Shown piece after piece: positions 3,766 to 11,451 of a stretch of 64,000 nucleotides of DNA. This DNA is from Thermofilaceae archaeon. GTDB lineage: Archaea > Thermoproteota > Thermoprotei > Thermofilales > Thermofilaceae. Positions within the stretch are counted from its first letter, which is position 1, and the number at the start of each line of letters is the position of its first letter. The notes below the pieces were generated by a model, which worked only from the letters and a program-made list of their open reading frames with translations, did not search any database and was not told the DNA's origin. Location of the stretch: NCBI GenBank assembly GCA_038861545.1, contig JAWCCZ010000004.1, forward strand, positions 128,001 through 192,000. Reading direction: 5' to 3'. The position numbers and the translations under genes are program-made.

Positions 3766-5894
3766 GGCTTTGAAAACTGAAGCCCGTAGGTTCTAGCTGT
3801 CTCAACGGATAATTTGACGTATTCTGCTCTAGCTTTTTCGAGGAACTCTTCCCTACTCTCGTAAGATCCTGACTTGTAGTTTTCGATTATGTTGCACATT
3901 TTCTCATAAACTGTAGATGCGATCTCAAGCGCGGCTTTAACCTCCCTAACATCGAATAACTTAAAAACGGATCTAGACCTTGAAAGAGCTTCCTCTATCG
4001 TATTTTCAGCAATAACCTCGTAAACCTTGGCTATCTTTCCTGGCGTCCAGCGTAAAACTCTACCCAACCTTTGCACCATTTGTCTAGTCTGCCCTGAACC
4101 TGAAAGTACTACTGCAACGTCAGCATCTGGAACATCGATTCCCTCATCCAATACAGTCGTTGTAACTATAACACGTGCGATACCCTTTCTAAAGGCCTCA
4201 AAGGCTTTTAGCCTTTCCCCCTTTTGAGTGGACCCAGTTATCAGCACGCATCTAGGCTCTACACTCTTTACAGTCTCAAATGCAACTTGGGCTTGGTCTA
4301 AATACTGGCAAAAAACTATTGTTTTTCCACCTTCACTCTCAATAATTTTCTTCAAGACTTCTAGCTTGGCTTTAGCTTTAGATGCTATCTTTATAAGTTC
4401 TGAGGCTTTTCTGAGATCCTGAGGACTTAGTTTTTCAGCAAGTTGCATGTATTCTTTTGCTTCGTCGTGGCCAAGTTTTACATAGATCTTTTCTACTTGG
4501 AAAGGAGCAAGCACCCCTTTAAGCACTAGTTGGTAGTAGGATGTCTTGTATACAGGTTCTCCAGCAGCTCTGTAGATCAATACCTCATTTTTATCAGCCC
4601 TATTTGGAGTAGCTGAAAGCACCATGGAACACTTAGCTTTTAACTTAAAGGCTATTTCTTTAAACGTCTCTGCTGGTAGATGATGCCCTTCATCGTAAAT
4701 TATAAAACAGAATTTATCGAAAATTTCATAAATGTTTTTAGCAGCGCTATGATAGGTAGCTACTGTAATATCAAGTATTCTTTTATCCCCACCCGTGAGA
4801 AAACCAGTTTTAACATTCAAACATTCCCTTATTCTCTTACTCCATTGTCTGGCTAACTCTACAGTCGTAACACATATGAGCGTTGGAACCCTAAGTATCG
4901 AGATAGCTGCGATAGCTACATACGTTTTACCAGCACCGGTCGGCATAACAATAGTGCCTCGCATGCCAGCCTTTAACCATGCATTAAGTGCCTCTTCTTG
5001 GAACTTGTATAGTGAAGGGGGGTTACCTAGAACCTCTATATTCTTAGTACACCAATTTACCTCATCCAGCACTTTAAGTCCTATAGATTCGAGAAGCTCT
5101 TTCAGAGTTGGTACAGCAAAATAAGGTATCTGGAGAACTTTATCGTTAAGCTTCCTGATTACGTTTAGCTTGGACTGCGATAATTCAACCTTACCCTCTA
5201 GGATCCTCGGCTTATAGTACTCGATCATAGCTTTGCTTTCGAGGAATACTTCATCTTCGCGGGAAAGTGAATGCGGCAATAGAACTATTGCTCCATCAAC
5301 TCCGATTTCCCGTATGGTAACGCAATCTGTGGGACTAACTAGTAGAGCGGAAGCTCTTTTGACCGCTTCAACCTGCTCATCTGTGATCGCTGGATCTATT
5401 GCCTGAAGGAGGTTAAGCAAGGTTTCGACAAGTTCTTCTGGACTGATTCCTTGTTTAAGTAGAATTCTAAAGGCTTTACCTAGATCCATCAAGTAGTACT
5501 GCAAGTCCATCCCGGCAATATTCTTCGCACTTACTACACTGGATTCCTTCAGGATCCTCCAAGCTGTGTAATCTCTAATGTATTTGCCGGGCAATAATAG
5601 AAGCTTTCCCCTTTGGGCTTCTATTGCTCTACATCTTCTGTCCTCAGCTAACAGTCGATCAATAATTTCCCTACCTGATTGCCCAAAGGCATCTGTTAGG
5701 ATTGCTCTAGCTAAGTTTGAGTACCTGATGATATCCTCGATCCGCGCGGCCCAGCATTTCTCATCTGCTTTCCAGTTACAAAACTGCTTGACTGAATCCT
5801 TCAAGCGTGAGACATCTTTCCATGGCAGATCTTTTGATAAAATGACATCGCCGATTTTAACTTTAAAGCTTAGAGAACTTCTTCCGCTGTGCAC
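3762..5894 (-). CDS. XPB/Rad25-like SF2 helicase with long N-terminal extension
   Basis: PTGAGKT, DEGHH, LSATP, LDEGIDVPD, QRLGR. Confidence 0.85.
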   Translation of the reverse strand: MHSGRSSLSFKVKIGDVILSKDLPWKDVSRLKDSVKQFCNWKADEKCWAARIEDIIRYSNLARAILTDAFGQSGREIIDRLLAEDRRCRAIEAQRGKLLLLPGKYIRDYTAWRILKESSVVSAKNIAGMDLQYYLMDLGKAFRILLKQGISPEELVETLLNLLQAIDPAITDEQVEAVKRASALLVSPTDCVTIREIGVDGAIVLLPHSLSREDEVFLESKAMIEYYKPRILEGKVELSQSKLNVIRKLNDKVLQIPYFAVPTLKELLESIGLKVLDEVNWCTKNIEVLGNPPSLYKFQEEALNAWLKAGMRGTIVMPTGAGKTYVAIAAISILRVPTLICVTTVELARQWSKRIRECLNVKTGFLTGGDKRILDITVATYHSAAKNIYEIFDKFCFIIYDEGHHLPAETFKEIAFKLKAKCSMVLSATPNRADKNEVLIYRAAGEPVYKTSYYQLVLKGVLAPFQVEKIYVKLGHDEAKEYMQLAEKLSPQDLRKASELIKIASKAKAKLEVLKKIIESEGGKTIVFCQYLDQAQVAFETVKSVEPRCVLITGSTQKGERLKAFEAFRKGIARVIVTTTVLDEGIDVPDADVAVVLSGSGQTRQMVQRLGRVLRWTPGKIAKVYEVIAENTIEEALSRSRSVFKLFDVREVKAALEIASTVYEKMCNIIENYKSGSYESREEFLEKARAEYVKLSVETARTYGLQFSKP

Positions 5895-11188: not shown

Positions 11189-11241
11189 CAGGGAATTGTA
11201 AGAACTGATTCTAAAAAACTATTGATGAAAGGCCCACTCCC

Positions 11242-11396
11242 TTCGAACCGGGGGCCTACCGGTTCACACCCGGCCTTTACCGGTGTCGACCGGCTACCGC
11301 GGTATCATTCAGCGCACAGCGCAGTCTCCGCGGGCAACCAGCTACAGCCGGCCGCTCTACCGCTGAGCTACGCGGGGCTTGGTCCCCGCGCCCGGA
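11242..11396 (-). tRNA. Permuted tRNA-Tyr(GUA): 3' part (nt 60-76) at 11396-11380, 5' part (nt 1-59) at 11377-11242, intron(s) at 37/38 (11341-11264)
   Basis: Reconstructed mature tRNA CCCCGCG TA GCTC AGCGGTA GAGC G GCCGG CT GTA GA CCGGT AGGCC CCCGG TTCGAA/T CCGGG CGCGGGG A CCA; C1-G72 and A73 Tyr identity; complementary leader (11412-11397) and trailer (11241-11231) form a BHB at 59/60. Confidence 0.93.
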
Positions 11397-11433
11397 ATCC
11401 CGGGAGCAGGCCATTTCCCTTTAATTGAAAGGG

Positions 11434-11451
11434 GTATATAAGTTATAACTT
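11434..11451 (-). promoter_or_regulatory. TATA box of the permuted tRNA-Tyr transcript, overlapped by the palindrome AAGTTATAACTT
   Basis: TTATATAC about 22 nt upstream of the leader start at 11412. Confidence 0.6.

Follow-up and report, generated by a model that had tools for sequence, protein, structure and literature searches.

The circularly permuted tRNA-Tyr(GUA) gene at positions 11412-11231 (minus strand) of the window, by which we mean the whole 64,000-nucleotide stretch of the Thermofilaceae contig that was analysed, carries a 78-nt insert directly after tRNA nucleotide (nt) 37. We favour, with moderate confidence, the interpretation that this insert represents two abutting splicing-endonuclease introns, of 57 nt and 21 nt, which share the 37/38 junction and are removed sequentially as the main route of processing in this genus.

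The gene forms one transcription unit and belongs to the Thermofilum pendens type, with its permutation junction at 59/60, an encoded CCA, and the minus-strand order TATA-like box, leader, nt 60-76, linker, nt 1-37, insert, nt 38-59, trailer, and a run of six T. All of the following features lie on the minus strand. The TATA-like box (TTATATA, 11435-11441), identified by reading the sequence and present at the same place in the sister genome L002, is located approximately 23 nt upstream of the 16-nt 5' leader (11397-11412) and is a putative promoter. The leader is followed by the 3' piece of the tRNA (nt 60-76; 11380-11396), which comprises T-loop nt 60, the 3' strands of the T-stem and acceptor stem, A73, and the CCA, and which was recognized in the sequence and by ARAGORN on the assembled product. 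A 2-nt linker, AG (11378-11379), separates the CCA end from nt 1, placing nt 60-76 just 2 nt upstream of nt 1 on the same strand, with one TATA-like box upstream and the T-run downstream. Exon nt 1-37 (11342-11377) contains the acceptor 5' strand, the D arm, the anticodon-stem 5' strand, and the loop CUGUAG with the anticodon GUA. Within the insert (11341-11264), intron 1 (57 nt; 11285-11341) was delimited at 37/38 by its orthologs and by the BHB that it forms with a decoy strand described below, and intron 2 (21 nt; 11264-11284), which abuts intron 1 at 37/38, by the BHB that forms after intron 1 removal and by its absence from single-intron orthologs. Exon nt 38-59 (11242-11263) supplies A38, the anticodon-stem 3' strand, the variable loop, the T-stem 5' strand, and the T-loop to nt 59. 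In the geometry scan, the 11-nt 3' trailer (11231-11241) pairs with the leader to form the termini BHB, the leader pair i16/j171 having 4/4 central pairs and a 10-bp outer helix. The six-T run (11213-11218) was read from the sequence as a likely transcription stop.

When the pieces were taken from the window and joined by script, both spliced and un-permuted, the assembled product was 75 nt long and was called by ARAGORN as tRNA-Tyr(gta) with a normal cloverleaf. In default mode, ARAGORN called no tRNA in the window, and Rfam returned only a partial tRNA match at the locus and no family matching the intron. No second tRNA-Tyr gene was found in the 1.63-Mb assembly, and this gene is the organism's only one. 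The host, a hot-spring archaeon, encodes two endonuclease-family proteins (two PF01974 matches, with open frames of 196 and 190 residues), which fits the alpha2beta2 (heterotetrameric) type of splicing endonuclease. Reviews assign this type to the group and describe it as able to accept relaxed motifs (PMC3978253, PMC4090602). As a separate observation, genome G000 is very intron-rich, since 31 of its 45 ARAGORN tRNA calls (introns allowed) contain introns and many of its 45 Rfam tRNA matches are 90-125 nt long; several of its ARAGORN isotype calls are clearly wrong (three '???' and one Phe(aaa)) and point to non-canonical introns.

The letters around the insert explain how two motifs can be read at one junction. 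The 5' exon ends in GCCGG CTGT AG at 11342, the exon restarts with ACCGGTA at 11263, and intron 2 (11284-11264) begins with an exact copy of ACCGGTA, a decoy of the exon strand. Motif 1 (57 nt, 11341-11285) has bulges AG|C and AC|A, a central helix in which three of the four positions pair (C-G, U.C, G.U, U.G), a 5-bp outer helix formed between GCCGG and the decoy CCGGU, and an inner helix of 8 consecutive bp. Once the 57 nt are taken out, motif 2 appears, with bulges AG|A and GA|A, a central helix that again has 3/4 pairs (C.U, U.G, G.U, U.G), the 5-bp anticodon stem as outer helix (h), and a 5-bp hairpin CCGGU/GCCGG as inner helix (h'), intron 2 being laid out as decoy ACCGGU, loop AAAG, GCCGG, GUGU, and GA. 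In each motif the bulges are exactly 3 nt long and correctly spaced; both are relaxed-class BHBs, because each central helix has only 3/4 pairs. The sequence-only reading had described these coordinates, bulges, and helices, the 7-nt copy, and one mismatch per central helix, and each of these details was confirmed by the sequence and by the geometry scan. In shuffles of the last 27 nt of the insert, an equally good or better two-step parse arose in 3 of 20,000 cases (P = 1.5e-4), an optimistic value because the shuffles lose many self-complementary CCGG words. CCGG is self-complementary and occurs in five copies in this stretch, so that several of the helices come cheaply.

The insert was compared across related genomes. 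The sister genome L002, from the same genus (g1), is 90% identical overall to the genome studied here (L001) and keeps all pairs of the two-step parse; four of the 21 positions of the small element differ, two of them in the hairpin loop and two preserving a pair (G-C to G.U and U.G to U-A). A more distant case is found in genus g3, where L010 (= L081; ~1500-1680) has a non-permuted tRNA-Tyr gene with three inserts, namely approximately 33 nt in the D arm and a stacked 59+23 nt at 37/38. The stacked layout in L010 is as in g1 but is written in different letters, with a decoy GCCGGG, a 6-bp hairpin (including a double change from U.G to G-C), a central strand GUAA, and a length of 23 nt, and its one-step motif scores 21. 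In genus g9, three genomes (L003, L004, and L006) have 16-21 additional nt at this site. Here the decoy or the hairpin has decayed and the distal central helix is good, and for this reason removal in one step is at least as plausible as removal in two. The extra element is absent from two other g9 genomes and from Thermofilum proper. A metagenome scan with the 5' exon word recovered 28 contigs, nearly all of them single-intron orthologs and none a further g1-type sequence, and when species-representative genomes were scanned for the stacked layout, the hits were three Thermofilaceae records, all identical to loci already in the set, and 29 chance bacterial matches.

The long intron has a wider distribution. 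In every tRNA-Tyr ortholog examined there is an intron of 54-64 nt to which intron 1 is orthologous, and intron 1 carries a conserved GA...AUGA stem and the word AGCCGG. As a side observation, this long tRNA-Tyr intron (11285-11341, minus strand; L002-L029, L031-L058) is conserved over several families of the order and contains a 6-bp stem (CCGCGG or CCGUG), whose 5' strand is flanked by GA and whose 3' strand by AUGA, in an arrangement that resembles a K-turn. Close to the 3' end of the intron, the word CAGCCGG is exactly complementary to exon nt 28-34 and stays constant even where the 5' end of the intron is unpaired with it; this constancy suggests a second conformer that may hold U35 at a helix end.

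To place the motifs among all those available to the transcript, a strict BHB geometry scan (two 3-nt bulges, a 4-bp central helix H, an outer helix h, and an inner helix h') was applied to every site pair of the 182-nt precursor. Leader and trailer supply the top-scoring pair (H 4/4, h 10 bp, and the 5-bp T-stem as h'), with cuts AU|U and AA|G at nt 59 and 60. The 57-nt intron pair ranks third of all site pairs, and only two registers of the termini motif stand ahead of it. In an unbiased listing of all one- or two-step removals of the insert that restore the canonical anticodon arm, the best two-step route in L001, L002, and L010 is the 57-then-21-type parse (59+23 in L010). The earlier proposal that the insert parses as 57 + 21 nt at 37/38 is thus also the best-scoring removal in the scan and in the unbiased two-step listing. 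The two motifs score 23 and 21 here and 23 and 24 in g3 (L010), compared with 17-24 for the motifs of the 27 distinct single-intron orthologs. By the same measure, removal of all 78 nt in one step scores 13-14, below every one of these orthologs, so that the one-step motif is the poorest in the whole family and the two-step motifs are ordinary. It should be noted that the central helices of the two-step motifs score only 4 and 3, and that every single-intron ortholog scores at least 5 in this helix. The reported relaxed specificity of the enzyme makes two such weak central helices acceptable, and it leaves room for the one-step route as well.

That one-step route is the strongest rival, and we regard it as a possible but clearly less probable account. 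It holds that the 78 nt form one composite intron, removed in a single step, and treats the decoy and the small hairpin as remnants of the event that gave rise to the 21 nt. In detail, the true anticodon stem and a weak CUGU/GUGU helix would present the 3' bulge, and the 5' cut would fall in the junction beside the intron-1 hairpin, giving a relaxed hBH motif. Such a motif has the complete 5-bp anticodon stem and 3/4 central pairs, although these are three G.U pairs only, and it is without an inner helix. Many single-intron orthologs have an inner helix of only 0-2 bp, and the enzyme thus tolerates a relaxed motif of the kind that one-step removal needs; published work describes the cutting of relaxed motifs by alpha2beta2-type enzymes (PMC3978253, PMC4090602). 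The g9 genomes, with their degenerate decoys and good distal central helix (GUAG, 4/4 in L003), also favour a single step. Folding evidence points both ways. The conformer using the true exon strand is slightly more stable than the decoy conformer when each is forced (-33.2 versus -31.1 kcal/mol at 37 C, and -8.3 versus -8.0 at 70 C), values that are near equal. When folding is left unconstrained at 37 C, the minimum-energy structure has the anticodon stem paired to the decoy, the copy that is transcribed first. Beyond the low motif score, it speaks against the one-step route that the decoy matches the exon at all 7 nt in each of the two g1 genomes, between which the element differs by 19%. 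The sequence-only reading stated that the insert does not form one good BHB; a weak relaxed motif for the whole 78 nt does exist, with a score below those of all 27 orthologs.

If the two-step path is used, its order is forced, because the 21-nt motif can arise only once the 57-nt intron is gone. Before any splicing, the 21-nt element at 37/38 has 2/4 central pairs and an outer helix of 1 bp, and the other placements of 21 nt that yield the right product have at most 2/4 central pairs and an h of at most 1 bp, with the exception of 44/45 (4/4, no flanking helices). Removal of the 21 nt first was accordingly rejected, since no motif forms, and placements at 38/39 to 43/44 were rejected for a central helix of at most 2/4 pairs or the lack of an outer helix. 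For the gene as a whole, an obligatory order of removal is only likely, since the weak one-step motif is a possible relaxed substrate for the encoded two-subunit endonuclease, and the two routes may operate side by side. Two further claims of the earlier reading are therefore narrowed. Ordered splicing, said to be needed, is needed on the two-step path but is only likely for the insert as such, for which a weak one-step motif exists; likewise, the count of three splicing events for one tRNA is correct when the two-step path is taken together with the 59/60 termini motif, and two steps are the probable rather than the necessary route.

We infer the cleavages, their order, and the ligations of the favoured two-intron route as follows. 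In the primary transcript, the anticodon-stem 5' strand would pair with the first ACCGGU, which is carried by the insert and transcribed before the true exon copy, and this decoy pairing together with the long intron 1 hairpin would create a relaxed BHB. The endonuclease would cut at AG|C and AC|A, and a ligase would join nt 37 to the A of the decoy. In the resulting intermediate, the decoy strand would fold onto GCCGG as a 5-bp hairpin, the true ACCGGU would close the anticodon stem, and GUGU would pair weakly with CUGU, yielding a second BHB at the same site, from which cuts at AG|A and GA|A would release the 21 nt. The third, independent leader-trailer BHB would join nt 59 to nt 60 and produce the circular intermediate of a permuted tRNA.

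A second alternative, which we consider very unlikely, also invokes two introns but places the 21-nt one at 44/45 (or elsewhere within 38-45), so that the first ACCGGUA is exon, the second is intron, and the product is identical. This placement gains a perfect CCGG/CCGG central helix (4/4, score 8), and the Thermofilum relative L023 has a real-looking 44/45 intron with the same helix. In g1, however, the placement has neither an outer nor an inner helix (h 0, h' 0) either before or after intron 1 removal, whereas the L023 intron has a 6-bp inner helix. Moreover, the g3 decoy in L010 starts with G, so that its intron cannot slide from 37/38 and must abut that site.

The last alternative, in which only the 57-nt intron is spliced and the mature tRNA retains the 21 nt as an elongated extra arm, its anticodon stem being built with the decoy, is highly improbable: ARAGORN accepts a construct keeping the 21 nt as a 96-nt tRNA-Tyr and calls exactly the 57-nt intron at position 37 of the unspliced construct, but the g3 and g9 decoys pair worse with the stem than does the true exon copy (a G.G or C.A mismatch, with G at nt 38 in g3), a short variable loop of 5 nt is common to all 27 single-intron orthologs, and the extra region would be 26 nt, longer than the usual class II arms in a tRNA that is class I in archaea.

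Other members of the family carry additional introns in the same tRNA, which we record here as observations in their own right. In L016 (g2), L014 (g4), and the metagenome loci L038 and L046, tRNA-Tyr has a 17-19-nt intron at 39/40 (near locus position 1500 in L016 and L014). The canonical intron supplies, as its final 4 nt, the 5' strand (GGAG) of the central helix of this small intron, so that the small intron has to be removed before the canonical one, opposite to the order read in the window. The independent 44/45 intron of L023 (G006, ~1500-1640) is 22 nt long, has a perfect CCGG/CCGG helix and a 6-bp inner hairpin without an outer helix (HBh'), and can leave before or after the canonical intron. 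The metagenome locus L043 (~4100-4300, reverse strand) combines a short 37/38 intron with a long T-arm insert after GUUCAAA, and may hold further non-canonical introns. Permuted tRNA-Tyr genes beyond T. pendens were found in genera g1 and g9, in two of eight genus-g6 genomes, and in many hot-spring metagenome contigs (L002-L009, L031, L033, L037, L039, L040, L045, L051-L053, and L057), with a linker from CCA to nt 1 that ranges from 0-2 nt to approximately 25 nt (L006). The other g6 genomes have a non-permuted gene with a different acceptor stem.

With regard to the origin of the small element, there is an idea, to which we give a low probability, that the stacked pair records the birth of an archaeal tRNA intron at the DNA level, through a short duplication or insertion that copied approximately 7 nt of the 3' splice junction. 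Under this scenario, the old splice site would stay usable since the copy serves as a decoy exon, and the extra piece would be immediately removable as a second intron; in the course of later drift, the two-step route would have been retained in g1 and g3, and the pieces would have merged into a single intron in g9. Direct repeats of approximately 7 nt are present in different registers, with two copies of ACCGGTA flanking 14 nt in g1 and two copies of GAAACCG flanking 13 nt in g9. The g1 element has 14/21 ungapped identity to the next 21 nt of the exon. When the 21 nt of L001 were compared as a tandem copy of exon nt 38-58, shuffling gave P 0.0006, a value carried by the 7-nt repeat, without which the match is 7/14 positions (P ~0.06, a binomial estimate). 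The same shuffle test gave P 0.10 in L010 and was not significant in L003 and L004. The repeats and this identity hint at birth by a short duplication of the junction; a tandem-copy origin of the 21 nt is to be taken as a lead only, since the statistics beyond the repeat are marginal. Searches of the whole genome by blastn-short with the 21 nt and the 57 nt returned chance-level words only, and hence no sign of a small intron copied from another tRNA intron in the genome.

The gene can be compared with several known systems. Our genome search matched G014 at 892724, the coordinate published for the permuted tRNA-Tyr of T. pendens (Table 1 of Chan, Cozen and Lowe 2011, PMC3218864), and exons and intron core align, which identifies the gene described here as an ortholog of the T. 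pendens gene. The two share their exons, the 59/60 junction, the encoded CCA, a very short linker, the long 37/38 intron, and a single-copy and therefore essential status. They differ in that the T. pendens gene has one intron only, of 59 nt (PMC3978253), whereas the gene analysed here, from a different genus of the family, has the extra abutting 21 nt and consequently three processing motifs rather than two. Nested introns are known in archaea. Some archaeal tRNA introns are so close that the second motif needs the first to be removed (tRNAscan-SE 2.0, PMC8450103), and Sugahara 2007 and Tocchini-Valentini 2009, as cited in PMC3978253, are given there for nested introns whose last motif forms after the others are processed. 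The nested crenarchaeal pre-tRNAs of the Thermoproteales and Thermofilaceae resemble the present case in having several endonuclease introns per pre-tRNA, a last motif that forms only after other removal, and relaxed motifs. They are unlike it, as far as the reviews summarise them, in that here both introns lie at the same 37/38 site, motif 1 borrows the exon copy of intron 2, and the gene is permuted. Disrupted and permuted tRNAs of Cyanidioschyzon merolae (Soma et al. 2013, PMC3728597) are similar in that intron and termini motifs are processed in sequence on one precursor. In that alga, however, each motif folds independently and the order follows stability or position, whereas here the second motif is nonexistent until the first intron is out.

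Judged against the accounts in these sources, ordered removal of nested or closely spaced archaeal tRNA introns (PMC8450103, PMC3978253) and the permuted one-intron form (PMC3218864) are already known. Measured against the reviews and the tRNAscan-SE 2.0 paper, to the extent that they treat such cases, the gene adds only modestly to what is known, by bringing in a further genus, by placing a second intron directly against the first at one junction, by carrying an exon-mimic through which the old splice site keeps working, and by having, in consequence, three processing motifs for one essential tRNA. No principle is changed by these results, as ordered removal of nested archaeal tRNA introns is, by the same reviews, already published.

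For the organism, every processing step of this transcript is essential, since the gene is its only source of tRNA-Tyr. Permuted tRNA-Tyr, described before in a single species, T. pendens, now spans at least three Thermofilaceae genera. The precursor offers a compact natural substrate for asking how an endonuclease of relaxed specificity picks between the decoy and the true splice site. Within the family, there are four solutions to a second intron beside the anticodon stem, namely the stacked arrangement at 37/38, an intron at 39/40 with the reverse obligatory order, an independent intron at 44/45, and none. Four solutions for the same tRNA make the Thermofilaceae a useful small system for the study of intron gain, loss, and removal order.
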